Assembly: GCA_041665365.1 (NCBI GenBank) | Contig: JBAYIY010000002.1 | Location: 2,178-66,177, forward strand | Reading direction: 5' to 3' | Source: Patescibacteria group bacterium | GTDB lineage: Bacteria > Patescibacteriota > Patescibacteriia > UBA9570 | Length of the DNA stretch: 64,000 nucleotides | Shown here: positions 1-38,325 of the stretch, piece by piece | How positions within the stretch are numbered: position 1 is the stretch's first letter | How the letters are laid out: each line of letters opens with the position of its first letter | Notes under the pieces: generated by a model | Databases searched by the model: none | The model's input: only the letters and a program-made list of their open reading frames with translations | What the model was told of the DNA's origin: nothing | Position numbers and translations under genes: made by a program

Positions 1-930
1 TTTCCATTCATCTAAATTACTCGCGACCGTTATCGTTACTTCTTTAAGACCCGCTTTGTCTAACAGTTTCCTTGCTTGCACAGAACGCTTGTATAAATCA
101 CCACTGTCAATGGTGATGCCTTTTATTGAATTTTTCTTTCGCTTCAATTCACTAGCAACTTGGATAGCATGCTGTAATCCTCTATCAAAATTGTAGGTAT
201 CAACCATAAAATCCATCGTATTTGGAAAAATTTCTGCTGCCCGGCTCATCGCTGCCGTCTCGGTAGAAAAAGATTTGATCAAAGCATGATAGGTCTTTCT
301 GGAAGGATCACTAAACGGTAGATCATATTTCCTGCAGAAAGCCGGAATCATATTAGCACCATGCCCACCCGCAATATAAGTTGCCCGGCCGAATTTAAAA
401 GCAGATTCGTTAGATTGAGCTCGTAAACTGGCCGATGCAAGAAATTTCTTGTCTTTGGCTGCTATTACTCCTCTGATCACCTTTGATAAAAAAATGGTAT
501 TACTTGTAAAGGCGTTAATCAAGAACATCGTCATTAGATTTCCTTCAATGATCGGTGCGGTGATACGCACGACTGGCTCATCCGGAAAAAATACCGTGCC
601 CTCTGGCAAGGCATAGACATCTCCGGTGAAATGAAAGCCTCGCAGATACCGTGCAAAACGAGGAGTGATGATGTTATTTTTTTGTAAGTACCTTACTTCG
701 TCACCTGTGTACCGCCAATTCAGTATGCCACGCACTATTTCCTCTGTGCCTCCCATCAATAAAAAATTTCTGTTCTTCGGCAAGCTTCTGACAAAGAGAT
801 CAAATGTTGCAACCTGGTGCTCCATATTTGACTCAAGCCAGATTGAACCGGCGGTAAATATCTGAGGTAACTCAAAAAGATGGAGGTCAGAATGGGTAAA
901 ATATGGTGTTTGGGGAAATGGTTTAGTCAT
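1..930 (-). CDS. Nicotinate phosphoribosyltransferase (NAPRTase, PncB)-family protein. The start codon is at 928-930 and the 3' end runs off the window edge.
   Basis: Manual reverse-complement translation gives MTKPFPQTPYF...DEPVVRITAPIIEGNLMTMFLINAF...VDTYNFD...GITIDSGDL, which matches NAPRTase blocks. The start overlaps the upstream stop as TAATG. The canonical FGTRR/GTSN/GTMAHS motifs are diverged (FGRAT/GGHGAN/RKTYHA). Confidence 0.55.
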   Translation of the reverse strand, partial: MTKPFPQTPYFTHSDLHLFELPQIFTAGSIWLESNMEHQVATFDLFVRSLPKNRNFLLMGGTEEIVRGILNWRYTGDEVRYLQKNNIITPRFARYLRGFHFTGDVYALPEGTVFFPDEPVVRITAPIIEGNLMTMFLINAFTSNTIFLSKVIRGVIAAKDKKFLASASLRAQSNESAFKFGRATYIAGGHGANMIPAFCRKYDLPFSDPSRKTYHALIKSFSTETAAMSRAAEIFPNTMDFMVDTYNFDRGLQHAIQVASELKRKKNSIKGITIDSGDLYKRSVQARKLLDKAGLKEVTITVASNLDEWK

Positions 931-2234
931 TAGATCCGTTTATTTGAGAGAGGAATTAAGTGACCAAGTTTTTTGATTCTGAACTCAATCTGCGACTTAT
1001 TATATTTATGTAATTTAGTGATGAGTGGTTCACGCCGGATCTCAATATTCATCTTTTCCAAAGCGGATATCTTTTTTGGGTTATTCGTGAGAAGACGAAT
1101 CTGTTTTAATTTAAACCACTTCAGAACATCTTCGATCTCGCTGTAATCGCGGGAATCGACTGGCAAACCCAATGTGAGATAAGAATGAATCGTATCATAA
1201 CCTTCGTCTTGCTTTTGATACACGCGGATGTGGTTAAAGGCGCCAACCCCTCTGCCTTCGTGGTTGACCACATAGATAATAAGACCTTTACGCGCGCGGT
1301 GGATTACTTCCATCGCCATCTGTAGTTGCGCATGACAGTCGCAACGCTGGGAATGAAATATCTGTGCAGTATTACAAGCCGAATGAATGCGAACCAATGG
1401 CCAGTCAGTCCCTTTGACGCGACCTTTCTCTAGAGCGTAATAATCTCCGTTACGTAATCTTAAAAGGTATAATTTGAAATGCGCTACAGATTGCTTTCCT
1501 ACTAGGGCTGGCATTTTAATCGGTCCGGCGACTTTAATTTTTTGTGCAGATCGTTTTATTTCAAAGACATAAAATACCCTAGGATCTCCCTTGGGCATTG
1601 TCTTTTTGCCAATGAGTTTAACTGTAAAACTCGCCGCTTTGGCTAAACGCTTCATCATCGCAATGTCTCCATAGTTGGCTTGTGCCAGATAAATTCTTCC
1701 GTTGCGGTTGAGGTACTTACTTACTTCTGAAAAAAATCTTTTATAGGTTCGGAACCCAGAGTCCCAGAATGAAGCTTCCACAAGATCCTTGGCGGCTTTG
1801 TTACGGTAGGGCAAATTTACAGTAATAACGTCAAATTTTTCACCGGTCTCTAATTTGTTGAATAGATCGGAACAGCGCGCATCAATGATCTTTGTGAAGC
1901 CATGAGTGTGAGCGTTCTGGTTCGTAGCTCGTACTGCCACAGAATTGGTATCTACAGCCACCACCTTACTGGCTCCTTTGTATGCAGAAAATACAGCAAT
2001 CACTCCGCAGCCAGTGCCGATATCCAACACACGCTCACCGGGTTTAATCATATATTTTTTAACGAGCAGAATTGAATCCTCATACGGTACAAACACAGTG
2101 CGATAAACAATAAATTTCTTTTCACAATAATTAATCATGATGCCTTTGTTAGGTATAGTGCGCGATTGTTTTTGTTTAGTTTTTTGCAGGCGTGTGATCT
2201 TGGCCAGTTGTTTTGAAGTGAGCATAGAGATCAA
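930..2234 (-). CDS. Fusion protein: N-terminal HemK/PrmC-like class I SAM methyltransferase joined to a C-terminal GTP cyclohydrolase II (RibA-like) domain.
   Basis: N-terminus: VLDIGTGCGVIA...DVITVNLPY (NPPY-type motif as NLPY). C-terminus: LVRIHSACNTAQIFHSQRCDCHAQL...NHEGRGVG...LLTNNPKK (GCHII zinc Cys triad and signature). Confidence 0.7.
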   Translation of the reverse strand: MISMLTSKQLAKITRLQKTKQKQSRTIPNKGIMINYCEKKFIVYRTVFVPYEDSILLVKKYMIKPGERVLDIGTGCGVIAVFSAYKGASKVVAVDTNSVAVRATNQNAHTHGFTKIIDARCSDLFNKLETGEKFDVITVNLPYRNKAAKDLVEASFWDSGFRTYKRFFSEVSKYLNRNGRIYLAQANYGDIAMMKRLAKAASFTVKLIGKKTMPKGDPRVFYVFEIKRSAQKIKVAGPIKMPALVGKQSVAHFKLYLLRLRNGDYYALEKGRVKGTDWPLVRIHSACNTAQIFHSQRCDCHAQLQMAMEVIHRARKGLIIYVVNHEGRGVGAFNHIRVYQKQDEGYDTIHSYLTLGLPVDSRDYSEIEDVLKWFKLKQIRLLTNNPKKISALEKMNIEIRREPLITKLHKYNKSQIEFRIKKLGHLIPLSNKRI

Positions 2235-2977: not shown

Positions 2978-3646
2978 TTACTTCTCGGAATGATTTCTGG
3001 TATAAGTTTTTTTCAGCCAATAAGCCAGTACATTAAGTGGCAAACAAATAGCGATAAAAAATAAGGCCAGGGTTGTATAAATTTCGACTGGTTTGTAGAT
3101 CATGGAGTTGATTCTTTGAGCAACACGAAAAATCTCTTCAACAGAAATTAAACTGGCGAAAATTGTGGCTTGCAACATCGCCACTTGCAGAAAAAGCAAT
3201 TGCGGAATAACGGCACGCATCATCAACGGAAATTTAATTTTAGTAAATATTTCTTTTTCGCTTAGCCCACTGACTTTACCGGCAATAAAATACTGTTTCG
3301 GCAGTCCATCCAAACTATCTTTTATTATGGCTGCAACAAAAACAATATTAACAACCGAAAGACCAGCTGCTGCGGTAATAAATGGTTTGATGACAACTCC
3401 TAACATGGCTTGCAAGGGGAAGTGCAACCAAAACAAAATAACTAAAATTGGACTACTTGAGATTAGAAACCAAAACACTTTGAGCCAAGAGCCTACACCT
3501 TTTTTTTGATGTGCCCACCAGCCAAACAATACACCAAAAACTAAACCTGTCGTCCAAACAATTGCAACTAACGCCAAACTAACAAGGATGCCTGAGATGA
3601 GACCCTCCCGATATTGAATAATGATATGTGCGATCGTGTCAAACAT
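2978..3646 (-). CDS. Amino-acid ABC transporter permease
   Basis: Multi-TM hydrophobic protein between the binding protein and the ATPase; 1-nt spacing suggests translational coupling. Confidence 0.75.
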   Translation of the reverse strand: MFDTIAHIIIQYREGLISGILVSLALVAIVWTTGLVFGVLFGWWAHQKKGVGSWLKVFWFLISSSPILVILFWLHFPLQAMLGVVIKPFITAAAGLSVVNIVFVAAIIKDSLDGLPKQYFIAGKVSGLSEKEIFTKIKFPLMMRAVIPQLLFLQVAMLQATIFASLISVEEIFRVAQRINSMIYKPVEIYTTLALFFIAICLPLNVLAYWLKKTYTRNHSEK

Positions 3647-3651
3647 GTTCG

Positions 3652-4524
3652 CTATGGTACGGTATATGGTTTGACGACTGGATAAAAGGATCCTGGATAC
3701 TTTTCGTACTGATGTATTAATTCATTTATTTTCCCGTTATTCAATAGTTCTTCGAGCGCCGTATTCATCATTGACTCAAATCCAGCTTGATTTTTTGGTA
3801 TTCCCATTGTATTACCAAAAGATCGAATCGGATCATCTTTAGTTATATTTTTTACCGAACCCGGATTATTCGCCAAAAATTCTTCAGCAATAGCCGGCTG
3901 AACAAAAGTCACATCCGCTTTATGCGTTATGACATTAAGAAGTAATTGTGAGACAGGAGTATCTTGCGGCAACGAAATAACAGTTGCGTCAGGAAAATTT
4001 GATTGAGTGATAAAAGCCGACATTTCACCATCTATCGTCGCAACCGTAATATCTGGGTTATTGATATCGACTAGATCAGCAAAACGATTTTCATCTGGGC
4101 GTGTATACACACCAACCGCGCTGTAATAAAGCGGGATTGTAAAATCTATATTCTTTGCTCTGGCGGCATTAGGCCATAAGTCTGTCACGATCACATCGTA
4201 ACGACCAGCGTCTAATCCCTCTATCATTGTTCCCCAACCAGCCTCTTCAACCCAATTAATTTTGAGATCCAAATTTTCACCAGCCACCTCAAGTGCATCG
4301 TGAAAAATACCAGACAGCTCACCAGTATTTGGATCTTTGATCATGGCCGGTGGATCTACTACATAGCCAGCGCGAATTTCTCCTTTGTCCAATACGGTAG
4401 ACAAAAGATCGTCATTTTGACTGGTTCTATTTTTATCAGAGAACAAATTAACCCCAATGAAAGAGGTAATGAGGACTATCACCACAATCAGCAAAATTGA
4501 TTTATAATTGTTCAGGTTATACAT
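3652..4524 (-). CDS. Amino-acid ABC transporter substrate-binding protein, membrane-anchored
   Basis: N-terminal TM anchor followed by a periplasmic-binding-protein-like domain; first gene of the transporter operon. Confidence 0.7.
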   Translation of the reverse strand: MYNLNNYKSILLIVVIVLITSFIGVNLFSDKNRTSQNDDLLSTVLDKGEIRAGYVVDPPAMIKDPNTGELSGIFHDALEVAGENLDLKINWVEEAGWGTMIEGLDAGRYDVIVTDLWPNAARAKNIDFTIPLYYSAVGVYTRPDENRFADLVDINNPDITVATIDGEMSAFITQSNFPDATVISLPQDTPVSQLLLNVITHKADVTFVQPAIAEEFLANNPGSVKNITKDDPIRSFGNTMGIPKNQAGFESMMNTALEELLNNGKINELIHQYEKYPGSFYPVVKPYTVP

Positions 4525-6808: not shown

Positions 6809-9313
6809 CTAGCAGGGCGGTGCTGAGGTAGCGGTACCGAGATACCACCACTCGTAGTCGTCGTGACAACCGCCGGCGTAGTAGCCAGAGCAGCTGCCAT
6901 CACAACCTTCGTCCACCGTGCCGTCACAGTTGTTGTCGTTCCAGTCACCCCGTTCTGGTGCGCCCGAGTAGGTAGTTGCATCCCACCAGGCACAGTCGAA
7001 GGAGTCATCGTAGCCGTCGCCGTCCGAATCTGCCGCGCTGGAGCCGCAGACATAGGTTAGCGAACCGGTCGAGTAGTAACTTTCGTAGTCGTCGGTGCAG
7101 CCATCCCAGTAGGCGCCACCGCAACCGTAGTCACAGCTCTCGTCCGTGCTTCCATCACAATCGTTGTCGACCCAGTCGGCCAATTCAGGCGCACCGGGAT
7201 AGATGGACGCACTCCACCAACCACAATCGACAGTATCATCGTAACCGTCGCCGTCGTAGTCGCTGGCAGTGGGCGTACTGCAAGAGCTGCTCGACGCACA
7301 GTCGGAGTCTCCACAGTCCACTAGCCCATCCAGATCATTGTCCATGCCATCGGAACAGTAGAGTTCGGCGCAGGGCACATCGCCCCCAACGCAGTCATCA
7401 TCCGTTCCGTTGCCACAGATCTCTGGTGCTCCATAGTAGATGGCTGTGTTGCTGTCGTTGCAGTCATTTCCACCACAGCCCGTGGCCGTCTGGCCGTCAC
7501 CGTCGATGTCGCAGGAGGTATCGCTCTCGTCGGTGGTGTCACTCGTACTAGTCGTATCGTCCTCATCCATTGGATCGATCGCCATGCCGTTGAGTGATCG
7601 AACCTCTGTACTCGTCCGAACACCGAAGTTTCCGAACAGAATATGAGGCCGGCCGTAGGTTGAACTCAAACCAGTGATCAATTGAGACTGATCCACCTGC
7701 TCTTCGAAGCTGTTGCCGGCATTGCTCCGTGCCAGATACAGAGTTGTACCGTTGGAACGAATCAGATCGGCGTAGGCGTCGAGGTAGTCCAGAGGATAGA
7801 TGGTATAGTCACCATCCGTACCACCGACATCGGTACCCATCACTGCGATGGTGAAGGTACTCGTGCTGTTGTTATAGTGACCAGCTTCAATTTCCACACT
7901 GGAGTCACGTTCGTCGATGCGAATGATCTCATCGCTACCGTCACCATTAGTGTCGGCGACAACGAACTCATCCGTGGGCAATGCCCAACCAGTGCTGATG
8001 TTGGTCACGCTGCCAGAACTGCTCAGACGTTGCCAGGTCAGAGTGCTCCCCGAACCAGCGAAGGCTTCCGCCTCACCGTTGCCGTTGAAGTCGCCAACTA
8101 AGACGACACTACTGGTGGTTCCGAAGCTGGTGCTCCAGGTGACCGCGTCACCGAACCGACCGTTATCGCTGTCGTTGAGAAAGTACTTCCAAGTCAGAGT
8201 GCCGTCGGTGTTGGCGAAGACCAGAATCAGATCCGCGCGCCCATCTCCGTCCACATCATCCAAGAACGCTTTGACCGCTTCACCGGACGTCTTCTTCCAG
8301 CGGGTCTGAGTGTTGAGCTCTCCTTCCCCATTGGACAGGTAGACATTGGTGTAGGTGTAACCAGGCTTGATCCGCACTTGCACCAAGTCATCCCAGCCAT
8401 CGCTATTCATGTCTCCGGAGAGCCAGGACAGAATGGTGGCAGTAGAGCCAGTGTTGGTGTAGGAGAAGTAGTTACCGGACAGTGCAGTATCCTCACCCGA
8501 ACCCGTCACCTCGTAACCGTAGATGTCGAACTTGCCACTGCTGTTAGGTTCGACAGTCATGAGGTGAGTGGTGGTAGTAGTGGAGGTAGTGGCTGAGGAA
8601 GATCCGTCGTTTGTAGATTCGTAGTAGTTGCCTGCAACGTAATCCACAAACTGGATACCTTCCATTTCAACTCCATCAAGCTCACTGGTGTAGCTGTAGC
8701 CGCTGCCGTTGTACTTGATGGAGAAGTGCAGATGGGTACCAGTTGAATCTCCCGTCGTGCCAATCGCACCGAGAATTTCGCCCTGTGCCACGGTCTTGCC
8801 GATGTAGAGCGAAGACGGAATTGAATCCGCAGCGAGGTGGTAGTAGAGAGTGGTATATCCGTCACTGTGGTCGAGCTTGACGTAGCAAGCAAAATGACCT
8901 TCGCTCGCCTTGCCCTGAGTGCAGCCAGTCGTTACCATGTCAATGATCGTGCCAGCGGCGACTGCCACAGCAGGATCACCACTGTAGCGATCTTAGAAGT
9001 CGATGGCATAGTAGCCATTGTTGGCATCAGTATGCCATGAATCGATGCCACCATGTAGAATCTCGGCAACCACACCACCAGCTTCCACGTTGCACCGAAT
9101 GAGATCGCCAGGCTGCATCGGCATCTTGAGCTCGGGACCCGTATAGCCAGTGGCCTTGAGAGAAATACCCGATCGACCAGATGCACTGACATTGTCACCA
9201 CATTCAGCACCCGGCAGTGATGGATCACAATCGCCGAAGCTGCAGGCGACCAGATCGGCGAACCCGAACATCACGAAGAGGCTGATCATGAGGAGGCGGA
9301 TGTACCGTTCCAT
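6809..9313 (-). pseudogene. Secreted M23 (LytM-type) peptidase with FG-GAP repeats and a C-terminal Cys/Asp-rich repeat region. It is interrupted by an in-frame TAA at 8993-8995. It is compositionally foreign (GC-rich).
   Basis: ORFs 8993..9379 and 6809..8968 are in the same frame. The M23 block ...GYYAIDF*DRYSGDPAVAVAAGTIID...STGTHLHFS spans the stop. The region has RBS AGGAG and signal peptide MERYIRLLMISLFVMFGFADLVA. FG-GAP-like DVDGDGRADL/GDFNGNGEAEA/ADTNGDGSDEI repeats are followed by DxDxDG...CxxxDCDD...PGAPE..CDGxDNDCDG repeats. GC is about 55-60% against about 35% in the flanks. Confidence 0.55.
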
Positions 9314-24621: not shown

Positions 24622-25488
24622 ATGTTAACCATCATGCTACCAATCGCCGGATTAATCTTACTTGGCTACATTTTAGGTCGTTTTAAACTCATCTCACCAA
24701 CGTGGATTGGAGTGTTTAATAATTATGGTTATTACATTGGTTTGCCAGCTTTAGTATTTAATAGTTTGGCCTTTGCCACTATTCAATGGCAACAATATAG
24801 CTTAATTTTTTTGATTCAAATTATTTTAGGGGCGGCCTTAATGTTGTTGGCACATTTTATTGGAGGCAAACAGCGCAACACTTATAGTATTGGCATTTAC
24901 TTTTCCAATGCCGGCTATGTTGGTATACCCATACTGCAAATGGCGCTGGGCACTTCGGCCGCGGCTGAAGGCACGGTGATTGTGGCTGCTATGGTTGTTA
25001 TGACTTCAACCTTGGGTTTAGGTTTAATGAGCCATGTCAAAATAAAACACTTACTCACAAATCCATTATTATGGCTGACGATTGTCGGTTTTCTGGTGAG
25101 TGCCTGTCAGTTTGTATTACCAGACGCCATAATTAAACTTAGTGGCATGGTTGCCGCCACCGCCTCCCCAATTGCCATGTTAGCCCTGGGTGCTTTTATG
25201 GCTTATAACCATCCAAAAAAATCAACTTTAAAAATAGCGGCTCGTTTAACTTTTGCTAAAATGATTATTGTACCGTTAGTTGTTGGTATAATCATTTGGC
25301 TACTACCAAATAGCCAATGGTTAAACACTACCTTTATTCAAGTGTGTATGCCAGTAGCCGTTACCGCGTTTGCGTTTGCTGAAATCTATCCAATTGATAA
25401 ATCGACTATTTCTAATGCGATTGTATTGAGTACACTCACTAGCCTTGTGACGATCCCGTTGGCGTTGTGGTTGCTCCCGATGTTGTAG
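24622..25488 (+). CDS. AEC (auxin efflux carrier) family membrane transporter
   Basis: About 10-TM protein with typical AEC N- and C-terminal repeat architecture. Confidence 0.6.
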   Translation: MLTIMLPIAGLILLGYILGRFKLISPTWIGVFNNYGYYIGLPALVFNSLAFATIQWQQYSLIFLIQIILGAALMLLAHFIGGKQRNTYSIGIYFSNAGYVGIPILQMALGTSAAAEGTVIVAAMVVMTSTLGLGLMSHVKIKHLLTNPLLWLTIVGFLVSACQFVLPDAIIKLSGMVAATASPIAMLALGAFMAYNHPKKSTLKIAARLTFAKMIIVPLVVGIIIWLLPNSQWLNTTFIQVCMPVAVTAFAFAEIYPIDKSTISNAIVLSTLTSLVTIPLALWLLPML

Positions 25489-26618: not shown

Positions 26619-28079
26619 TTATTTTAGTAAACTACGATAGAGTTTAGCATAAGCTAATGCGGATTTTTTCCAACTGTAATCCCCTTTCATACCATGCAGT
26701 ACTAATTGTTGCCATATGTCTGGTTCACGTTGATACACTTTAATGGCTCGTTTTAGTGTAGTTAACATGGCCGCACTGGAATACTTTGTAAAGACGAACC
26801 CATTATAGCCCTCGTGCACAGTGTCTTTTAAACCACCAGTGGCACGTACTACTGGCACGGCACCGTAACGCATCGCAATTAATTGCGCTAAGCCGCATGG
26901 TTCATGGCGTGACGGCATTAAAAAAATATCACTGCCGGCATAAACATATTGGCTAAAAGTGGTATCAAATTTATTATGAAAATGCCATTGCTCAGGACGA
27001 AGTTTGGCTACGGCTCGCAACACAGTAGTATAGCGTTTAATACCGTTACCACAAATCACATATTGTACCGGCAAACGAGACAATTCTGTGAGGGAATGAG
27101 TTATAAGATTCATGCCTTTGGGTGTATCGAGGCGAGTAACAATGCCGATAACTGGAATCTTGTTATTTATCGGTAAACCACATTGGCGTTGTAAAAATAT
27201 TTTATTTCTTTCCCGTTGTTTGATAGTGCGCCAGGAAAAATTAACCTGCACAGCTGGATCTACTGTGGGGTCAAAAAACTTAGTATCAATTCCATTTAAC
27301 ACAGAATAAAGATCAGATTGACGTTGTTGTAATAATAATTCGAAATCATTGCCATATTCCGGTGTAATAATTTCTTTAGCATATTGTGGGCTGACCGTAG
27401 TAATATAATCAGCTGACTTAATTCCAAGCCAGGACATGCGCGGACCCTTCGGACGTAATGCCTCTGTGAAATCAAATAATCTATATAGGGAGGGGGTAAA
27501 TTGTTCCCAAATTGGTTTTAGTAATGAACCGGCATAACCAAGATTATGAATGGTATAAATGGTTTTGAGATGAGATAAATTAAGATCATTGTGTAACAAA
27601 GCTACCAAAGGAGCCATGTGATAATCGTGTGCATGTATAATATTAAAATCTTTTGGCCGTTGACAAATGAAGGCATATACCGCATAACTAAAAAAAACAT
27701 ACCGTAGTGCCTGCCCAACAGCATCCTTGCTCGATACTAAACCGGTAAGTGGATTTAATACCGAAAAACCATCATAGATTTTTCCCTGACTAAGAAAATC
27801 AGGTTGTTGAAATAACAAAAGACTCATGGTTTTATAGCGCGCTTTCCACACAACTACACTATAAGACTGCTGACCAACTTTAACTGTTAAAGTCGTGATA
27901 CGCTCAAGACTATGTAAAGCCGGTCGAGGAATTTCTTCGTAAAATGGTAAGGCAATTACTAAACGATCAACCTGCTTTTGTAGTTCCAATGGTAATCCCC
28001 CAATCACATCGCCTAAACCACCGGCTTTAGCCAATGGCGCCATTTCCGCCGCCGCAAATAAGACGCGGGTTGGTTTCAT
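26619..28079 (-). CDS. glgA: Glycogen/starch synthase (GT5)
   Basis: N-terminal FAAAEMAPLAKAGGLGDVIGGLP motif. Confidence 0.85.
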   Translation of the reverse strand: MKPTRVLFAAAEMAPLAKAGGLGDVIGGLPLELQKQVDRLVIALPFYEEIPRPALHSLERITTLTVKVGQQSYSVVVWKARYKTMSLLLFQQPDFLSQGKIYDGFSVLNPLTGLVSSKDAVGQALRYVFFSYAVYAFICQRPKDFNIIHAHDYHMAPLVALLHNDLNLSHLKTIYTIHNLGYAGSLLKPIWEQFTPSLYRLFDFTEALRPKGPRMSWLGIKSADYITTVSPQYAKEIITPEYGNDFELLLQQRQSDLYSVLNGIDTKFFDPTVDPAVQVNFSWRTIKQRERNKIFLQRQCGLPINNKIPVIGIVTRLDTPKGMNLITHSLTELSRLPVQYVICGNGIKRYTTVLRAVAKLRPEQWHFHNKFDTTFSQYVYAGSDIFLMPSRHEPCGLAQLIAMRYGAVPVVRATGGLKDTVHEGYNGFVFTKYSSAAMLTTLKRAIKVYQREPDIWQQLVLHGMKGDYSWKKSALAYAKLYRSLLK

Positions 28080-29194
28080 GACCGTTTTCTAAAATCTTTT
28101 AACGCTGCCTCATACACAACCTCATAATTTTTTGTCATGGTCGGCACGGAAAAGTTTTTTTCCACATGGTCACGACAAGCCTGACGGTTAATAGTTGGAA
28201 TCTTTTTAATCGCGCGCACCATTTCCGGCAGGGTACGCACAATGAAACCAGTTTTACCATCACGAATCAACTCTGGAGCCGCGCCATTTTTAAACGCAAT
28301 CACAGGTGTACCACAGGCCATAGCTTCGACTATGACTAAACCAAATGGTTCTTCCCATTTAATTGGTACCAGTAAAGCCTTAGCCTCACCATATAGTTTG
28401 ACAAGCTGGGTTTGGTTAATCTTGCCATAATGTTGCACATCCTGACTGTGTAATAATTTTGTCACAGTGGTTTTAAAATCATGTGGTACCGGTTGACGTG
28501 GATCAAACAGACCGGCTACTTTCATCGGATAATGGGCTAACTTGGCCGCTTGCAAAGCCACAGCAACGCCTTTTTCTGGAATAAACCGCCCACTATAAAA
28601 CAAGTAGTCTTTTGGTGACGGATTAAATTTGAATACCTGTGTGTCAATGCCATTATGAACCTTAGCAAAAAAAATATTTTTCGGTACGGCAGCTTGCTGA
28701 CGTTTTGAGATACTAACAAAATAATTGCCTGGTTGATTTTGAAAAAGTTGTAAAAAATAATTATTGAAGGCGGCGGCGGCACTGGCCGTGCGAAATAAAT
28801 TCTCATGCACAGTAATAATCTTTGGAACTCCCGGCATTAAGGCTAATAATGGTATTACTTCCTGCACAATATGAAAGTGCATGACATCTACTGGATGGGT
28901 TTGAATGTACTTGTAAATATCCTGCATCATCCGCTGTGAATACAGCACCGTGTGCTTACTACGAATAAATACATCAGCTACTTGTTTATTAACTGGCAAG
29001 TTAACAAAAGCTCTATAACCTAATGACTGTTTATGGGCTAGTGTGTGTGATTCTTTAGTACAAAAATAATCAACGTGGTGACCACGCGCCACTAACCCAC
29101 TAACCAAAGTGTCAGCTATAGCAATCGCCCCGTGAATAGTCCCTGCAGCTAATGGGGTGGGATATTCATTAGACGAATAAAAACCAATGCGCAT
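28076..29194 (-). CDS. GT4 family glycosyltransferase, tandem paralog 1
   Basis: EPFGLVIVEAMACGTPVIAFKNGAAPELIRDGKTGF GT4 C-terminal motif. Confidence 0.75.
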   Translation of the reverse strand: MRIGFYSSNEYPTPLAAGTIHGAIAIADTLVSGLVARGHHVDYFCTKESHTLAHKQSLGYRAFVNLPVNKQVADVFIRSKHTVLYSQRMMQDIYKYIQTHPVDVMHFHIVQEVIPLLALMPGVPKIITVHENLFRTASAAAAFNNYFLQLFQNQPGNYFVSISKRQQAAVPKNIFFAKVHNGIDTQVFKFNPSPKDYLFYSGRFIPEKGVAVALQAAKLAHYPMKVAGLFDPRQPVPHDFKTTVTKLLHSQDVQHYGKINQTQLVKLYGEAKALLVPIKWEEPFGLVIVEAMACGTPVIAFKNGAAPELIRDGKTGFIVRTLPEMVRAIKKIPTINRQACRDHVEKNFSVPTMTKNYEVVYEAALKDFRKRS

Positions 29195-29197
29195 AAA

Positions 29198-30289
29198 TTA
29201 TTTTTTTAGATTATTCTGTAAAACTGCTTCATAAACCGATTGATATTTCTGAATCATTGAATTGTACGAAAATTTATTAACCACATGTTCACGACACTCA
29301 CGGCGGCTGATAGTAGAAACTTTTTTAATGGCGCGCACCATTTCAGGAATGGTGCTAACAATGAAACCAGTTTTACCATCTTTGATAATTTCCGGTACTG
29401 AACCCCGCTTAAAAGCAATCACCGGCGTACCACACGACATCGCTTCGATCATGACTAGGCCAAAGGCTTCTTCCCACTGAATCGGAAACAATAGCGCTTG
29501 CGCTTGACCATAATATTTGGCCAATGAGGCATAATCAGCTTTCTTGGTGTACTTAACGTATGGTTGATGTAACAAAACGGTCACTGATTGTTTAAATTCT
29601 TTCGCCAATTCCACGCGCGGATCAAAAAAACCGATCACATGAATTGGTCGATGCGCTTGTTGCGCCGCTTGCAAAGCAATGTCTACTCCTTTTTCCGGTA
29701 TAAATCTGCCACTGAACAAGACCTGATTAGTTGGAAATGGATTAAATTTGAATAAATTAGTATCGGTGCCATTATAGACATTGTCATAAAAAGATAATTC
29801 CGGCATACCCATTTGTTGCCGTTTTGAGATACTAACAAAGTATGTGTTCGGTGAGTTTTTATACAAACTCAGAAAAAAATTATATTGCGTGATAAATAAA
29901 CTATCATGCACCGTCACAATTTTTGGAGTATCCGGTAAAAACTGCATGAAGGGTAAAGCATCGCGCACATTATGTAAGTGAATAACATCCACCGGATGAT
30001 CGCGCAGATAGAGCGCCATATCTCGAGCCATGCGTTGGGCGTAATAGGATTTTGTCTGATAGCGCGCCTTACCACTGGGCACTGACATCGGTAAATTTAT
30101 ATATGAGTTATATCCTAATGATCTTTTATTAGCCTTGGTGGTAGAATCTTCTGAACAAAAAAATTCCACAGTATGCCCCATTTCAGTTAGGCCATCAGCT
30201 AAAGCGCCAGCCACAGTTACAACTCCATGAATATATCCAGCCGGTACGGGATAAGGATATTCATTGGTGGCGTAAATCGCGATGCGCAT
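29198..30289 (-). CDS. GT4 family glycosyltransferase, tandem paralog 2
   Basis: EAFGLVMIEAMSCGTPVIAFKRGSVPEIIKDGKTGF; paralogous to the 28076..29194 gene along its whole length. Confidence 0.75.
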   Translation of the reverse strand: MRIAIYATNEYPYPVPAGYIHGVVTVAGALADGLTEMGHTVEFFCSEDSTTKANKRSLGYNSYINLPMSVPSGKARYQTKSYYAQRMARDMALYLRDHPVDVIHLHNVRDALPFMQFLPDTPKIVTVHDSLFITQYNFFLSLYKNSPNTYFVSISKRQQMGMPELSFYDNVYNGTDTNLFKFNPFPTNQVLFSGRFIPEKGVDIALQAAQQAHRPIHVIGFFDPRVELAKEFKQSVTVLLHQPYVKYTKKADYASLAKYYGQAQALLFPIQWEEAFGLVMIEAMSCGTPVIAFKRGSVPEIIKDGKTGFIVSTIPEMVRAIKKVSTISRRECREHVVNKFSYNSMIQKYQSVYEAVLQNNLKK

Positions 30290-30294
30290 ATAAT

Positions 30295-32061
30295 TTAAAT
30301 TGGTCTAGTTCTATAATTGCGTCTCCAATTATGTTCGTGTTTTCCCATACTTTCTGCTTCTAAGGCTGGCCGGTACATGATATCAATATACTCAGACAGC
30401 ATCCGTTCGGCAGAAAAATTACCCCAGATTAAACCGATGGTTAACTTCATCCGATTCACCCACTCCACCGGTATTTTGTCAGCATTTCTGTTGTAGTACA
30501 GCGGTACGATATCAGTTTCGAGCATTTTATAAAGCGCTAGAGCCGTTTGCGCCTCAGGTAATATCCAACCAATTCCCTCCAGATCAACTTCATCAACCCA
30601 GCCATCACTGACCGAGCATTGCAAGACACCATTCGCTCCCGCCTTCATACCACTGGTACCACTTGCCTCTTCACCACGGCGGGGCGTATTAATCCATAGA
30701 TCGACACCCGATACCAAAACACTGGCTAATGAAATTGTGTAGTTCTGTATAAAAACAATGTTAGCACTTAACTTCTGGTCTTTAATTATTTTTATTATAT
30801 TGTGAATGTGAGAATGACCAATGACGTCCCCCGGGTGAGCTTTACCGGCCATAATTAGCTGCACTGGTTTATCGGCATTATTAACAATGGCGCGCAATTT
30901 TTCGATATCAGAAAAAAGTAACTCCGGTTGTTTGTAATCAGCAAAGCGCCGCGCCCAGGTCATAATTAAAGCGTCCGGGTTTAAAACATGACCAGTTTGA
31001 AATTTAACTTCATCCACCAACCTCTTCTTAGCCATCAGATGTAATTGCCAAAGCTCGTGCGGTGGCAAAGCATTTATCGCCGTACTATCAAACTGTGGTG
31101 CCTGGGCTTTAAGATCAGGGTTAACCCAATGTGGCAGATTTACACCATTAGTAATGGCGATCATGTCTTTGTCTGGCCAAATCAATTTAGCTCGGACACT
31201 GTGCAGTTTACTAACAGCATTAATGCGGCTAGCCATGTTAAGAGCCAAAACCGTTAAACTAAATTGGGTTGGATCGGCTGCTAACTGACCTTTTTTTAAA
31301 ACATCATCCATGGCTAAACTGATATGTTTGGTATAGGCAGATAACTGCTCTGTTACAACTGTCGCTGGAAAACATTCATTACCCGCCGCCACTAAGGTAT
31401 GATTAGTAAACACAATTTTTTGTCGACCATACTCATAGGCTTGATCAAATGACATACCATACTCGTCCATATAGTGATGAGCAATTTCCAAAATAGCCAA
31501 AGCTGAATGACTTTCATTGAGATGATAAATCGAGGGATGAATATGCAACTCCATCAAAGCGCGCACACCACCAATGCCTAAAATAATTTCTTGTAAAAAC
31601 CGAACATCAGTGCGCGTATCATATAGGCGTTGCGTAATCAGACGATCAGTGGGAGAATTTTCCGGCACATCGGTATCTAATAAATACACCGACACATCTC
31701 CCTGACAGTATTCCCAAATTTGAATAGTGACCTCCCGATCTTGAATCGGCACACGCACCAAAATGCGCTCCCCTTCGGTATTAACCACCAATTCAATCGG
31801 CGCATCCGATGATTCTAAAATTGGATAATACTCTTTTTGTTCGCCAGCTAAAGTTATTGATTGCTTAAAATACCCCGCCTTATAGAGCAAACCAACCGCC
31901 ACAAACGGTAAATTCAAATCATTGGCCTGGCGCACAATATCACCAGCCAACACACCTAAACCCCCGGAATAAATCGGTAAACGATCATCCAAAGCAAACT
32001 CGGCACTCATGTAAGCTAACGGGTGTTGCGCTAAAGTAGTTCGAAAGGCACGTAAATCCAC
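30295..32061 (-). CDS. glgP: Alpha-glucan phosphorylase (GT35, short type)
   Basis: YMSAEFALDDRLPIYSGGLGVLAGD; PLP-site EASGTSGMKAGANGV. Confidence 0.85.
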   Translation of the reverse strand: MDLRAFRTTLAQHPLAYMSAEFALDDRLPIYSGGLGVLAGDIVRQANDLNLPFVAVGLLYKAGYFKQSITLAGEQKEYYPILESSDAPIELVVNTEGERILVRVPIQDREVTIQIWEYCQGDVSVYLLDTDVPENSPTDRLITQRLYDTRTDVRFLQEIILGIGGVRALMELHIHPSIYHLNESHSALAILEIAHHYMDEYGMSFDQAYEYGRQKIVFTNHTLVAAGNECFPATVVTEQLSAYTKHISLAMDDVLKKGQLAADPTQFSLTVLALNMASRINAVSKLHSVRAKLIWPDKDMIAITNGVNLPHWVNPDLKAQAPQFDSTAINALPPHELWQLHLMAKKRLVDEVKFQTGHVLNPDALIMTWARRFADYKQPELLFSDIEKLRAIVNNADKPVQLIMAGKAHPGDVIGHSHIHNIIKIIKDQKLSANIVFIQNYTISLASVLVSGVDLWINTPRRGEEASGTSGMKAGANGVLQCSVSDGWVDEVDLEGIGWILPEAQTALALYKMLETDIVPLYYNRNADKIPVEWVNRMKLTIGLIWGNFSAERMLSEYIDIMYRPALEAESMGKHEHNWRRNYRTRPI

Positions 32062-32115
32062 GGCTGAATTATAACAGAAAAAATGAATGTTTACAAGCCT
32101 TTATTAAATATATTT

Positions 32116-33267
32116 CTAAAATAAAGTCACTTTATCTCGAACCGCGCGATAAGCTAAAATATATAAAGCCGCCGACCAAACCTGCTGGGCGCGACCAAGC
32201 GGTTGACCAGTCATACCATCTAACCACTCATTACAATCGGTTTGTATAATTATTTCGGCCAACTTGTTTAATAGTGTTTCAGCTTTATTTTTTTGTTTGT
32301 CTTTTAATAAAGTCAACACCGACCAACCACCAATAAACGGCCAACTGCCACCATTGTGATAATGATTTGGCAAATTCAAATCCCGCTTACGAAAGTACTC
32401 ACGCCAATAAGTTTCCCCGGGTTGAATGGTTGGATAAATCGCTTTAGCCGGATACGGTAAAAAAATATCATGCTGCTCGGCATAGTTAAAGATAGCCTGG
32501 GTTTGCTTGGTATCAGTGAGATCAAATAAAACAGCTAACATATTACCTAAGGTATCAAACCAAGTACCGGCTTCATGAAACCCACGCCAAGCCAGCAAAT
32601 ACGGATACTTATGAACCAATTGAGCATTTTCCTGCTGAAATATCTGGGCGTATTCTAAACTAACTGGATTAACTAATTTACTCGTATCAACTGAGCTAAG
32701 TTCATACGTCCAAAAATATTTTTGCATGCTCTCCTGCACAAGGTTAGCCTGAGTTTGGTCACCAGCTATTTTTAAAGCATAATAATACAAAACATTGTCA
32801 TATAACACTTTACCGTGTGTGGGAAATAAATCTTGCCAATCTCCGGCCTCCTGTATGGATAACACACCAGATTGATCCACATCTTGATTCGACAACCACT
32901 GTAGAGCTTGTTCTGCTGCTGGATAGTATTCTTCTAAGTGCAATGCATGGACTACAATAACAAACCAGAGCGTTCCATCGATGGTGGCTTGGTAATCAGC
33001 CTGTTTGGCGGTGGCATCAACATTGTTTGGCAACATGCCCAATGACGTCTGAAAATGTTGGAGTGTTTTGATAGATGCTTTTGCGGTATTTAATAAATCT
33101 GTATCACCGGATACTTGGGCCGCTAAGGCAGCCATTAAACTATCCCGCGCCCAGATTTCACTATACCCATCAATTTTGCCAGAGGCTTTAAACCCAATTG
33201 GTGTACAACAGGCGCGCAATGTATTTAGAGCTATTTGGTAAGCTTGATCCATATCAGTAGCGTACAA
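32116..33267 (-). CDS. Six-hairpin glycoside hydrolase (GDE_C / GH63-like amylo-alpha-1,6-glucosidase family)
   Basis: GYSEIWARDS motif and an (alpha/alpha)6-type length/composition; sits in the glucan locus. Confidence 0.5.
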   Translation of the reverse strand: MYATDMDQAYQIALNTLRACCTPIGFKASGKIDGYSEIWARDSLMAALAAQVSGDTDLLNTAKASIKTLQHFQTSLGMLPNNVDATAKQADYQATIDGTLWFVIVVHALHLEEYYPAAEQALQWLSNQDVDQSGVLSIQEAGDWQDLFPTHGKVLYDNVLYYYALKIAGDQTQANLVQESMQKYFWTYELSSVDTSKLVNPVSLEYAQIFQQENAQLVHKYPYLLAWRGFHEAGTWFDTLGNMLAVLFDLTDTKQTQAIFNYAEQHDIFLPYPAKAIYPTIQPGETYWREYFRKRDLNLPNHYHNGGSWPFIGGWSVLTLLKDKQKNKAETLLNKLAEIIIQTDCNEWLDGMTGQPLGRAQQVWSAALYILAYRAVRDKVTLF

Positions 33268-33292
33268 TACCTAAGTTTGCTAGTCTATAGCT

Positions 33293-33973
33293 ATGTTATT
33301 TTTATTAGATTATGACCATACATTATTAGATGACGAAATTGAACATGCTGGAGTTCGTCAGTTGATTACCGCACTAACTAATAATCCAAAAAATATTGTC
33401 GTCATTATTAGTGGACGCGCCCATGATGTGCTTGATGAAAAATTTCACGGTTTACGTTGTGCTCTTTCGGCCGAACATGGGATTTGGCGAAAAGACCCTG
33501 ACCAACCTTGGAATTTAACACAGCAAATCAAGTTAGATTGGAAAGATCCGGTGCGCCAATGTTTTCAGGCTATCGTTGCTTGCACGAGTGATTCTCTCTT
33601 TGAGGAAAAACCGTATGGGTTTGTGTGGCATAATAAAAAAGTATCACCTGATATTAGACAAAATCGTATGCAGCAACTAGTTACTAGTTTAACTCCATAT
33701 TTAACACGTTATCATCTACGCATTATTATTGGACACAGTTTAATTGAACTTGTCCCAGACAGTGTTAATAAAGGTCGCGCCACGCTGTATTGGTTACAAC
33801 GCTACCCGGAAAAAGATATTTTGGCCGCCGGCGATGATACCACCGATGAAGACATGTTTAGTGTTTTACCAGACAATGCCATAACTATCAGAGTTGGCGC
33901 CGGTGCAACTAAAGCCAAACAAAGAGTACCTAACCCAACGGCTCTACACACTTTACTTAGACAGTTCGTTTAG
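33293..33973 (+). CDS. HAD-IIB sugar-phosphate phosphatase (trehalose-6-phosphate phosphatase-like)
   Basis: LLDYDHTL (DxD nucleophile motif), ISGRAHDVLDE, AAGDDTTDEDMF. Confidence 0.65.
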   Translation: MLFLLDYDHTLLDDEIEHAGVRQLITALTNNPKNIVVIISGRAHDVLDEKFHGLRCALSAEHGIWRKDPDQPWNLTQQIKLDWKDPVRQCFQAIVACTSDSLFEEKPYGFVWHNKKVSPDIRQNRMQQLVTSLTPYLTRYHLRIIIGHSLIELVPDSVNKGRATLYWLQRYPEKDILAAGDDTTDEDMFSVLPDNAITIRVGAGATKAKQRVPNPTALHTLLRQFV

Positions 33974-35859: not shown

Positions 35860-35893
35860 AAACAAACACCCGGCTTGAGCCGGGTGTTTGTTT
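35860..35893. terminator. Bidirectional Rho-independent terminator between convergent genes
   Basis: AAACAAACACCCGGC-TTGA-GCCGGGTGTTTGTTT, a perfect 15-bp stem with U-rich arms. Confidence 0.7.
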
Positions 35894-37418
35894 AGATGAG
35901 ATATTTATTCTTTTTTAGTGTTTCCACTAAAACTGTTTTGCTATCAAGTTTAATGGCTCCCCTAACAGATGCTACGGTAGTTAACACGAACACTTTATGT
36001 TTCAGTAATAATTTCACTAATACAGGAGCATGTTTAATATCTTTAGCTGACACAATTTCGTAAGACACACCTAATTTTTTTAATTGTTGAGCAGCATGTT
36101 TCAGGAATTTTGGTGAACCGGAAATAAGACCGGCTTTTTTCACTTGCACAGTTGATTTAGTAACGGCTACTTTAACACCTTTAACAGGTGCGATAATTAC
36201 TCCGGCACCAACGGTGGCATTAGTGAGCTCATCAATAATAATAAAAGCACCGGTATTGCGGTTTTTATAATACGGATCAAACATTAACGGTTGACTAGTA
36301 GTGATATACACCCGACCGATTTCGTTAAACTGTAACGCCTTAGCTGGTTCACGATGATAGCTATCAATGTTTAAACGATACCGCAGCGTATCAATCTGGC
36401 CTCTGGTGGTTCTGGTGGTATGTTTAATAATATAGCTTCTTTTGGGTTGCATGGGCTCTTCAGAAAACCAACACATAGTAGCTTCAAATTTATTAGCCAC
36501 TTCCGGCACGTTTTGTTCGCGCACAATCATGTCACCGCGGGAAATGTCCCGTTCATCAGTTAGAGTTAAAACAACAGATTGCCCAGAGAAAGCCTCGGTT
36601 TGGTTTTTATCATCATAGATGACTGACTTAATTTTGGAGGCTTTACCCGATGGTAAAATACTCACCTTATCCCCCACGCGCACAATGCCACCTTCAACTC
36701 TACCGGCATAACCACGAAAATTTTGATTAGGCCGAATAACGTATTGCACGGGAAATCTAAAATCAATTAAGTTGCGATCGCTCACAATTTGCACGTTCTC
36801 GAGATAATCATACAAGGTGGCCCCTTGATACCAGTTCATGTTATTGCCTCGATTCACTACCATATCACCCCGTAACGCTGAGATCGGCATAATCTGAAGA
36901 TCTTCAATGTGTAACCGAGTGGCGCATTGAATAACATCTTTTTTTATAGCCTCAAATATTTCCTGACTATACTCAACATCATCAATTTTGTTGACTACTA
37001 CTAAAATATGCGGGATAGATAACAAACTAGCCACAAACAAATGTCGCTTAGTTTGGGTGAGCAACCCATGCCGAGCATCTACTAAAATGATAGCAATATC
37101 AGCGGTAGAGGCACCGGTCACCATGTTGCGGGTATACTGCTCATGGCCAGGCACGTCAGCAATAATAAAACGTCTTTTCTGCGTGGTGAAATAACGGTAA
37201 GCGACATCGATCGTAATTTTTTGTTCACGCTCAGCCGATAAACCGTCAGTGATTAAAGATAAATCTATCTCTTGACCGGAGGTTTGACTGGCTTTCTTAA
37301 TAGCATCCAGTTGATCTTGAAAAATGGCGTTACAATCAAATAGTAACCGACCAATCAAGGTGGATTTACCATCATCGACACTGCCCGCGGTTGTAATTCT
37401 AACTAGTTCTAGTGCCAT
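35892..37418 (-). CDS. cysN: Sulfate adenylyltransferase subunit 1 (CysN GTPase) with a C-terminal extension of about 80 aa
   Basis: AGSVDDGKSTLIGRLL, DGLSAEREQKITIDVAYRYF, DVPGHEQYTRNM. Start taken at MALELV. No APS-kinase P-loop in the extension. Confidence 0.8.
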   Translation of the reverse strand: MALELVRITTAGSVDDGKSTLIGRLLFDCNAIFQDQLDAIKKASQTSGQEIDLSLITDGLSAEREQKITIDVAYRYFTTQKRRFIIADVPGHEQYTRNMVTGASTADIAIILVDARHGLLTQTKRHLFVASLLSIPHILVVVNKIDDVEYSQEIFEAIKKDVIQCATRLHIEDLQIMPISALRGDMVVNRGNNMNWYQGATLYDYLENVQIVSDRNLIDFRFPVQYVIRPNQNFRGYAGRVEGGIVRVGDKVSILPSGKASKIKSVIYDDKNQTEAFSGQSVVLTLTDERDISRGDMIVREQNVPEVANKFEATMCWFSEEPMQPKRSYIIKHTTRTTRGQIDTLRYRLNIDSYHREPAKALQFNEIGRVYITTSQPLMFDPYYKNRNTGAFIIIDELTNATVGAGVIIAPVKGVKVAVTKSTVQVKKAGLISGSPKFLKHAAQQLKKLGVSYEIVSAKDIKHAPVLVKLLLKHKVFVLTTVASVRGAIKLDSKTVLVETLKKNKYLI

Positions 37419-37419
37419 A

Positions 37420-38325
37420 TTAAAAGTAACCTTCTTTCTTTTTTTGCTCCATGGCAGATTCAGACCCATGATCAATCGCTCTGGTTTGACGTTCTGAGGC
37501 TTTGGCAGCTAACACTTCGGCAATGATTTCATCCAGCGTAGTGGCAGTAGACTCAACTGCCCCAGTTGATGGTGAACAGCCTAAGGTACGATACCGACAC
37601 CAAATATCTTTAACTGCCTCCCCGGCTTTGGGTTGAACAAACTCATCTAAGCGTAACCAGACACCGTGTCGTTTAATCACTTTTCGTTTCTGGGCAAAAT
37701 ACAGCGGCACCACTTCAATTTTTTCTTGTTTGATGTAATACCAAATGTCTAATTCGGTCCAATTCGATAGTGGAAAAATACGCACCGTTTCACCTTCATT
37801 TAATCTGGTGTTGTAAGTATGCCACAATTCTGGCCGTTGATTTTTTGGATCCCAAACATTTTCTTTATTACGCAACGAAAAGATTCTTTCTTTGGCGCGG
37901 GCTTTTTCTTCTTCCCGGCGGGCTCCACCAAAGGCACCAGTGAAGGCATGCTGTTTAATTGCCTCCAACAACGGTTTGGTTTTTTTGTAGTAAATGTATT
38001 TATCTGTATGGGCGTCATCGGGAGACATGGCTAAAGCGGCTGGTTCGGTATTTTTATGCACAATTAGTTTGGCGCCAATCTTTTTTGTGTAGTAATCGCG
38101 AAACTCAATCATCTCATGAAACTTATACCCAGTGTTGATATGTAACAAGGGAAACGGTATCTTCGCCGGATAAAACGCCTTTTCCGCCAAGCGTAACAAC
38201 ACTGAGGAATCCTTCCCAATCGAATACAGCATTACTGGATTAGCCAGTTCGGCGGCTGCTTCCCGGAAAATATAGATACTTTCGGCTTCTAATTGCTTTA
38301 AATAGTCTAGATTATAATCCTGCAT
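37420..38325 (-). CDS. cysD: Sulfate adenylyltransferase subunit 2 (CysD)
   Basis: [19 protein letters not shown]...[21 protein letters not shown] (PAPS-reductase-like fold). Confidence 0.85.

Follow-up and report, generated by a model that had tools for sequence, protein, structure and literature searches.

The stretch of DNA analyzed here, referred to as the window, comprises 64,000 nucleotides of contig JBAYIY010000002.1 from a Patescibacteria group bacterium. Near its beginning, on the reverse strand, lies a gene (930..2225) for a protein of 431 residues in which a HemK2/MTQ2-like class I N-methyltransferase is followed by a GTP cyclohydrolase II (GCHII). Comparison with related loci shows that the two-domain protein is genuine, and it is predicted to be a bifunctional enzyme. 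Its gene arose recently by the fusion of two neighbours that were linked in translation within an operon conserved in Patescibacteria.

The gene was delimited with Pfam and NCBIfam models and with its orthologues. The mechanical open reading frame (ORF) is longer (930..2234, reverse strand) because it begins with a TTG at 2234, and it gives a translation of 434 residues. An earlier, sequence-only reading of this DNA had taken this longer frame as the gene. The frame exists as described; the conserved start, however, is the ATG at 2225, since all orthologues in the databases begin with MLT. The stop codon is the TAA at 930-932. In the 434-residue translation Pfam recognizes a class I methyltransferase of the MTS/PrmA/Methyltransf_31 type at residues 56-193 and GTP_cyclohydro2 (PF00925) at residues 255-400 with an E value of 2.6e-41.

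All further parts of the gene are on the same strand and are numbered according to the 431-residue protein. The methyltransferase domain comprises residues 1-225 (1551..2225), an assignment that is based on Pfam and NCBIfam, on a family of standalone proteins, on an AlphaFold2 model and on Foldseek. It contains the S-adenosylmethionine (SAM) binding motif I, LDIGTGCG (residues 67-74; 2004..2027), of which D68, G72 and G74 do not vary across the alignment of the family, and motif IV, NLPY (residues 137-140; 1806..1817), with the family consensus N-[LP]-P-[FY]. The GCHII domain (residues 231-431; 933..1535) is of full length compared with standalone enzymes and is identified by PF00925 and by matches in the PDB. 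Its Zn-site segment HSACNTAQIFHSQRCDC (residues 281-297; 1335..1385) includes the three Zn cysteines and a subfamily-specific replacement of the sequence HSECLTGD. Between the two domains is a linker of only five residues, S-A-Q-K-I (1536..1550). We defined it in an alignment of the junction in the window with those of three related loci (L003, L010 and L111). In the relatives with separate genes the position of the linker is occupied by a stop codon, a 17-nucleotide spacer and a start codon; the sequence '...FVLRRK*', the spacer and 'MKKINMIGPVRLP' have become '...FEIKRSAQKIKVAGPIKMP' in the fusion. The same alignment indicates that neither partner lost any residues at the junction.

The sequence-only reading had regarded this combination of an NLPY methyltransferase with GCHII as an unusual fusion. 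The Pfam and NCBIfam assignments bear this out, and a search of 5.8 billion protein clusters resulted in only four fused orthologues, with identities of 78-100%, from different assemblies and samples. The identical fused gene is present in two independent assemblies, one from ENA and one from Logan (L001, L002), and orthologues with the same architecture and 78-81% identity come from other samples (P0002-P0004 and L003, the latter with 81%). Between the window and L003 the ratio of nonsynonymous to synonymous substitutions (dN/dS) is 0.13 in the methyltransferase half, 0.18 across the junction and 0.08 overall. These values were obtained at a dS of more than 0.9, where synonymous sites are near saturation. 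Each half is of complete length and has been maintained by purifying selection. Independent assemblies, orthologues and dN/dS all speak against the possibility, raised with the first description, that a frameshift had merged two genes.

The likely origin of the fusion is evident from three contigs (L010-L012) in which the two enzymes are encoded separately. Here a methyltransferase of 226 residues (69% identical) and a GCHII of 198 residues (78-79% identical) are encoded 17 nucleotides apart, and a gene for a protein resembling nicotinate phosphoribosyltransferase (NAPRTase) comes next, with the same one-base overlap as in the window. The surroundings of the operon are also syntenic; they comprise genes for a PBP, a Mur ligase, an asparaginase, an M23 peptidase and an ATP-binding cassette (ABC) importer. 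Two additional contigs (L111 and L112) have the same split layout of methyltransferase and GCHII. In spite of the synteny the flanks of the fused and split loci are merely 69-79% identical. The presence of separate genes in a syntenic relative indicates that the fusion is recent and narrow, and the small number of fused orthologues in such a large set of clusters limits it to a narrow lineage. Together, these results show that two operon neighbours were joined recently and within a single restricted lineage.

We compared the GCHII half with characterized enzymes and with the corresponding domains from the databases. It matches the PDB entries 4RL4 (2.9e-39) and 2BZ0 (1.8e-32). In E. coli numbering it has kept the Zn ligands Cys54, Cys65 and Cys67 as well as Arg49, Gly93, Arg94, Tyr105, Asp113, Thr114, Asp126, Arg128 and the NNPxK motif. 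The statement of the sequence-only reading that the Cys triad and the core signature are intact is therefore correct for the Zn cysteines and the catalytic residues. It holds only in part for the signature: HSECLTGD, which is highly conserved in RibA, reads HSACNTAQ here, and the CX2GX7CXC motif has Ala in place of its Gly. The substitutions lie on either side of the first Zn ligand and hence probably form part of the lining of the Zn/guanine site. The NCBIfam models give a similarly mixed result; the score of 171.2 is below the cut-off of the equivalog model TIGR00505 (205.85), while the subfamily model PRK00393 is passed with 162.5 versus 148.

The phylogenetic relationship of the GCHII domains was estimated from 220 sequences. 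In this neighbour-joining tree, which was computed with no bootstrap, the domain from the window falls into a variant clade that is separate from about 190 RibA/RibBA sequences; it does not cluster with canonical RibA, an outcome that would have spoken for a conventional enzyme. The variant clade contains 26 sequences with the signature [HEQ]SAC[STN]x[AG][HQN] and two others. Its members come from Patescibacteria, from DPANN archaea and from unnamed metagenome contigs. Arg49, Arg94, Tyr105, Asp126, Arg128 and the NNPxK motif are present throughout the clade and not just in the window protein. One member, P0173 (L116, 10001-11476), is fused to a RibD-type deaminase domain. This part passes the RibD equivalog model (157.7 vs 156.35) and has no reductase domain attached. 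The protein has in addition an N-terminus of 140 residues with no assigned family; a dCTP deaminase gene is nearby, and the context contains no other rib genes. The RibD-type deaminase acts on the 2-amino group of 2,5-diamino-6-ribosylamino-4(3H)-pyrimidinone 5'-phosphate (DARPP). The fusion in P0173 hence argues that the clade may still make a DARPP-type product. The variant signature had no match in viral contigs, so that a phage origin is not indicated.

The methyltransferase half resembles several known families, albeit with scores below their cut-offs. It reaches 112.9 bits with PRK14968.1-3 (cut-off 162), 77.1 with the HemK2/MTQ2 model TIGR00537 (cut-off 87) and 79.1 with the PrmC model TIGR03534 (cut-off 199.1). 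The domain consists of an N-terminal helix (residues 4-23), a beta-hairpin and a Rossmann core. Including the first 50 residues, it belongs to a family of standalone proteins of 225-245 residues, which align with residues 1-226; the closest of them are 69-76% identical to the window domain. Where a source is given, the members of this family are from Patescibacteria and DPANN, while most are unnamed metagenome sequences. Their annotation in the databases is inconsistent (TrmK, PrmA or release factor methyltransferase). All of the 92 family members that were aligned have the N and P of motif IV, and NLPF is the family consensus for the NLPY found here.

The HemK fold with an N-x-P-[FY] motif is known for the methylation of amide or exocyclic amino nitrogens. 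An AlphaFold2 model of the methyltransferase domain had a confidence (pLDDT) of 97. With this model Foldseek ranked the carbamoyl N-methyltransferase 9L4Q, RNA methyltransferases, GenN, PrmC and HEMK2-TRMT112 almost equally, with TM scores of 0.62-0.71. Since N-methyltransferases for proteins, RNA and small molecules score alike, fold and motif indicate N-methylation of an amide or amino group; they do not indicate which substrate is used.

The operon has the order family-3 ABC importer, methyltransferase, GCHII and NAPRTase-like gene, with the first two enzymes fused in the window. All genes are on the reverse strand. The first gene (3652..4524) encodes a family-3 solute-binding protein, which was identified by Pfam; among proteins of known structure, those closest to it bind amino acids or are cyclohexadienyl dehydratases. 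It is followed by an ABC permease (BPD_transp_1 in Pfam; 2978..3646) and an ABC ATPase (PF00005; 2257..2976). The latter gene is located 31 nucleotides upstream of the ATG of the fusion, a position that is conserved in L003, L010 and L111. A scan for promoters and terminators found no enrichment of promoter-like sites.

Downstream of the fusion is the 5' part of the NAPRTase-like gene (1..930), which encodes residues 1-310 of 462 and is cut by the edge of the window. Its start overlaps the stop of the fusion in the sequence TAATG at 928-932 (ATCTAATG), exactly as had been read from the DNA in the first place. The complete protein of 462 residues is encoded in L001 (11296-12684), on a 157-kb contig of a Patescibacteria MAG in which the window begins about 3.5 kb from the contig end. 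It passes TIGR01513 (329.9 vs 297.4) and PRK12484 (337.8 vs 330) narrowly. The protein keeps the His of YHA, which is invariant, together with DTY, DSGD, SNLDE and PGKKQVFR. The sequence-only reading had assigned it to the NAPRTase family with substituted phosphoribosyl motifs, and we can confirm this assignment: EFGTRRAQ has become ASASLRAQ, GVRIDSGD has become GITIDSGD, and GVGTK has become MALTE. These substitutions are shared by all 120 of the closest homologues (P0350-P0469, 45-100% identity), which at the same time retain the catalytic His, DTY and DSGD. Most of them are metagenome sequences with no name attached, and those with a name belong to Patescibacteria, Nanoarchaeota and Woesearchaeota. 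The fact that the same losses occur in every one of these homologues indicates a conserved subfamily and not a decaying gene. The true substrate of this subfamily may differ from nicotinate and phosphoribosyl pyrophosphate (PRPP), to judge from the altered motifs.

A search for proteins with both domains had been suggested together with the initial description of the fusion. We performed it as an exhaustive HMMER search of 1.84 billion representative sequences, combined with Pfam scans and source names, and found such proteins also in Micrarchaeota, Burarchaeum and Chlamydiia. The archaeal fusions (P0128/P0345 from Micrarchaeota and P0179 from Candidatus Burarchaeum) have the domains in the same order, but their N-terminus is extended and about 125 additional residues separate the two domains. 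Those from Chlamydiia (P0182, P0184) have the reverse order; a canonical RibA is followed by a region of about 300 residues with no Pfam match and then by a HemK-like methyltransferase. The GCHII domains of the latter group with canonical RibA in the tree. Their methyltransferase matches the profile of the family described above (hhalign probability 98.8%, E value 8e-17) and has the motif SLPF. The DPANN relatives score 72-95 with TIGR00537.

Additional DPANN-like loci were obtained by scanning metagenomes for DNA patterns that encode the variant Zn-site signature. In L106 a methyltransferase of 358 residues abuts a separate GCHII of 204 residues, and an aldehyde dehydrogenase follows. In L108 and L110 the methyltransferase is followed by a TrmB-type regulator on the opposite strand and then by GCHII. 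The methyltransferases of these pairs and fusions have one and the same best NCBIfam model and agree in the Asn and Pro of motif IV. A regulator of the TrmB family adjoins the pair of methyltransferase and GCHII in all four DPANN contexts. Furthermore, the C-terminal effector domain of such a regulator is fused to the C-terminus of a variant GCHII in P0005, P0006 and P0127 (L004, 2816-3853; tblastn 1e-23); this effector-type domain had no sequence match in Pfam or the PDB. In one DPANN lineage a standalone variant GCHII (P0346) is present in the ribosomal-protein operon with the order S5, L30, MazG, L15, GCHII, SecY. Several samples contain this arrangement, with a total of more than 24 contigs that include L096-L101, L113 and L115. 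Together, these data show that the linkage between methyltransferase and GCHII is recurrent across three symbiont lineages.

We also examined the loci for a connection with riboflavin synthesis. In agreement with the statement that no riboflavin genes are adjacent to the fusion, none was found in the entire 64-kb window. The same is true for the genes beside the variant-clade GCHII in about 12 related contexts. A weak tblastn match to a RibB probe (25078-25275) is spurious, as it falls into a Mem_trans transporter gene. An Rfam scan found no FMN (flavin mononucleotide) riboswitch. The separate GCHII clade, the score below the TIGR00505 cut-off and the lack of both rib genes and riboswitch in these searches all argue for a role other than riboflavin synthesis. 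Such a role had already been considered by the sequence-only reading, and the position of the clade apart from canonical RibA and RibBA makes it plausible. Full-text searches of the literature found no description of a methyltransferase-GCHII fusion, nor of GCHII in Patescibacteria or DPANN.

As a tentative interpretation, which we favour while considering it slightly less than an even chance, the GCHII would open GTP to a DARPP-type product, and the HemK-like half, with SAM as the methyl donor, would N-methylate this same molecule of nucleotide origin at an amino group. Methylation could take place on the substrate or, with greater likelihood, after the ring has been opened. The module would then feed a pathway other than that of classical riboflavin synthesis, common to Patescibacteria and DPANN. 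The only candidates for further steps in Patescibacteria would be the importer and the NAPRTase-like protein; in DPANN the TrmB-type regulator with its ligand-binding domain would control the module. A shared molecule is suggested by the repeated independent fusions, by the clade member that is joined to a RibD deaminase and by the local ligand-sensing regulator in DPANN. Both domains are of known kinds, and the proposed chemistry is an extension of known reactions.

Several observations weigh against this interpretation. Fusion and adjacency prove linkage; they do not prove a shared substrate. To our knowledge no methylated DARPP-type metabolite has been described. The variant GCHII occurs with no methyltransferase nearby in L004, L096, L105, L107, L114 and L116; in L114, for example, it is located within the operon of a Liv-type ABC importer. 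Conversely, members of the methyltransferase family are found with no GCHII nearby. In L005-L007 (the context of P0007) a homologue with 42% identity comes after the genes for an ABC importer of the NMT1/THI5 type and for two proteins of 451 and 323 residues, for which no family was detectable. This region resembles an integrative and conjugative element, with genes for an integrase, a relaxase and a coupling protein of a type IV secretion system. Comparison of profiles with hhalign detected no relationship of the proteins next to P0007, or of the linker domain of the DPANN fusions, to the NAPRTase-like, GCHII and methyltransferase profiles. In L009 the homologue precedes an ABC ATPase, and in a Duganella contig (L016) it is beside GH3, sulfotransferase-like and arginase-family genes. 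The latter is the sole true family member among the matches listed from a scan of genome contigs with the family profile and generic patterns. In an AlphaFold2 model of the full-length protein, for which only four fused sequences could be aligned, the GCHII half has a pLDDT below 50. Finally, the window encodes Dus, an FMN-dependent dihydrouridine synthase (50894-51862, forward strand), which implies that the organism needs a supply of flavin.

In the first alternative an ordinary RibA that makes DARPP for riboflavin, with the rest of the pathway encoded elsewhere or provided by a partner organism, was joined through the accident of adjacency to an unrelated protein glutamine methyltransferase like HemK2/MTQ2, which would act on release factors or ribosomal proteins. 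We consider this unlikely, although it deserves attention. It is consistent with the Dus gene, with the complete set of catalytic GCHII residues and with the PRK00393 score. The methyltransferase half comes near the HemK2/MTQ2 threshold, its best matches in structure include PrmC and HEMK2-TRMT112, and NCBI calls the Micrarchaeota fusion HemK2/MTQ2. Accidental joining would have been easy, as the loss of one stop codon and of the 17-nucleotide spacer sufficed. However, the two functions are linked repeatedly, not only in Patescibacteria but also in Chlamydiia and in several DPANN lineages, where linkers and gene orders differ; this is improbable for unrelated functions. The ligand-sensing regulator beside the pair in DPANN is a poor fit to a constitutive release factor methyltransferase. 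The domain has NLPY in place of NPPY and is devoid of the N-terminal domain of PrmC, in line with its low TIGR03534 score. The distinct GCHII clade and the contexts without rib genes also disagree with an ordinary RibA.

A second alternative, which we judge improbable, is the clean-up or catabolism of guanine nucleotides. The GCHII would remove damaged or modified GTP or feed the salvage of ribose phosphate, and the methyltransferase would act on the same pool. The neighbourhoods offer some support for this view: the MazG gene next to the variant GCHII in the DPANN ribosomal-protein operon encodes a nucleoside triphosphate pyrophosphatase, a gene for a MutT-like NUDIX protein is two genes away from the GCHII in L107, and P0173 has the dCTP deaminase gene nearby. 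RibA has other residues by the Zn site, and E. coli RibA has been reported to act on 8-oxo-dGTP (PMC6906586). On the other hand, a SAM-dependent N-methyltransferase has no clear role in such a process. Tyr105 and the Zn triad, which are needed for ring opening rather than for pyrophosphate release, are strictly kept, and the clade member with an attached RibD-type deaminase is in better agreement with a biosynthetic fate of DARPP.

The sequence-only reading had drawn a link to the ToxA and ToxB enzymes of the toxoflavin pathway. A pathway of this azapteridine type, or another pathway for a natural product derived from GTP, now appears very improbable. A methyltransferase and a GCHII do occur together in the tox, fervenulin and pseudoiodinine clusters, GTP-derived clusters of a kind described in the literature (e.g. 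PMC9911603), and N-methyltransferases from antibiotic pathways are among the top Foldseek matches. But we found no homologue of ToxC, ToxD or ToxE/RibD and no exporter near the examined loci, and so the proposed link is not supported. Moreover, the hosts are symbionts with minimal genomes, the adjacent genes encode an importer and a NAPRTase-like protein, and the pair is widespread in Patescibacteria and DPANN, whereas biosynthetic gene clusters occur sporadically. A pseudogene, or an artefact of the assembly or of a frameshift, conceivable in principle as a chimera because relatives with split genes occur in the same samples (L011 in ERZ27249449, L012 in SRR6484324), is practically negligible given the identical gene in the ENA and Logan assemblies, the orthologues from other samples, the divergent flanks and a frame that stayed open with a dN/dS of about 0.1 in both halves and the junction.

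There is a fair chance that the fusion marks a new pathway. A more far-reaching view, which we put forward as a doubtful possibility, is that Patescibacteria and DPANN, both radiations of ultra-small symbionts, share an undescribed GTP pathway. The variant GCHII would open GTP, and a dedicated HemK-like enzyme would N-methylate the diaminopyrimidine nucleotide formed in this way. This would lead to a new methylated metabolite of the pyrimidine or pteridine type, which would be sensed by the TrmB-type regulator and, in Patescibacteria, processed by the NAPRTase homologue without its PRPP contacts and linked to the importer. If so, a metabolite of a GTP pathway would serve as a cofactor, a signal or a salvage intermediate. 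Patescibacteria and DPANN are generally held to lack the biosynthesis of cofactors and nucleotides. Genes that are kept and repeatedly welded together in such symbionts are therefore likely to be important. A GCHII that is always from one divergent clade, with no other riboflavin genes in the examined contexts and with repeated ties to a HemK-like N-methyltransferase, a ligand-sensing regulator or a RibD-type deaminase, suggests that 'RibA' annotations in these genomes hide another function; similar caution is appropriate for the annotation of the downstream gene family as 'nicotinate phosphoribosyltransferase'. The fusion provides a single and easily expressed protein for a direct test of the chemistry.

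The remainder of the window contains several other features. An M23 peptidase of 719 residues (6809-8968, reverse strand) has FG-GAP repeats and MopE-like Cys-rich 'DNDCDG' repeats; the stretch is locally GC-rich (0.49 vs about 0.38), and this composition creates many spurious overlapping ORFs. A glycogen/trehalose-type cluster (26619-33973) encodes three GT4/GT5 glycosyltransferases, a glycogen phosphorylase, a GH100-like protein and a trehalose phosphatase. Adjacent genes for a CysN-like GTPase and a CysD-like PAPS_reduct protein (35892-38325, reverse strand) form a pair of the sulfate adenylyltransferase type, which is unexpected in a minimal Patescibacteria genome. A tRNA-Gln(CTG) on the forward strand (40704-40776) is antisense to the last ~43 codons of an ORF for an S8 peptidase of 866 residues (40647-43247, reverse strand), and the annotated end of this ORF may thus be wrong. 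A coupling protein of a type IV secretion system of the TrwB/TraG type, with 847 residues, is encoded at 45490-48033 on the reverse strand.

The two halves of the fusion can be compared with well-known enzymes. With RibA from E. coli (2BZ0/2BZ1) and H. pylori (4RL4) the GCHII half shares the PF00925 fold with 40-47% identity and the complete domain length, as well as the Zn Cys triad and the catalytic residues that were checked. The difference is in the HSECLTGD sequence of RibA, which is replaced by the signature of the variant clade, and in the TIGR00505 score below the cut-off. In RibBA the domain N-terminal to GCHII is a DHBP synthase (PF00926), while the window protein has the methyltransferase there instead. 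The methyltransferase half in turn shares the Rossmann core, motif I, the N-x-P-[FY] motif IV and, ahead of the core, a beta-hairpin and a D-S motif with HemK2/MTQ2 (N6AMT1-TRMT112) and PrmC/HemK, for which Foldseek gave TM scores of 0.66-0.78. These enzymes have NPPY where the window domain and its family have NLPY or NLPF, and the window domain scores below the cut-offs of TIGR00537 and PRK14968.1-3. The helical domain with which PrmC binds release factors is absent and a single family-specific N-terminal helix is found in its place; unlike HemK2/MTQ2 and PrmC, the window methyltransferase is encoded in a metabolic operon. The best or near-best structural matches, Asc-Orf2 (9L4Q), a carbamoyl N-methyltransferase, and GenN (5U18) from the gentamicin pathway, methylate amide or amine nitrogens of small molecules; they are only 16-20% identical and belong to unrelated pathways.

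The downstream protein has the catalytic His, DTY, DSGD, SNLDE and PGKKQVFR in common with the NAPRTases from E. faecalis (2F7F) and human (4YUB). Unlike those enzymes, it has lost the first Arg of GTRR, the Arg equivalent to human R318 and both Gly of the GxGT phosphate loop. At the level of gene combinations, the toxoflavin system resembles the window locus in that ToxA and ToxB, a methyltransferase and a GCHII, are encoded together. It differs in that the tox clusters have ToxC, ToxD and ToxE, which the window locus lacks, and the hosts and the genetic setting are different, as is the HemK-like type of methyltransferase. In the uracil-catabolic pathway of yeast a GCHII homologue, URC1, works with a phosphoribosyltransferase, URC6, outside riboflavin synthesis. 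The window GCHII matches the URC1-like model NF005536 weakly (39.5 bits vs a cut-off of 403) and has kept the RibA-type residues; URC1 and URC6 nonetheless provide a precedent for the pairing of GCHII with a phosphoribosyltransferase-like protein that is seen here.

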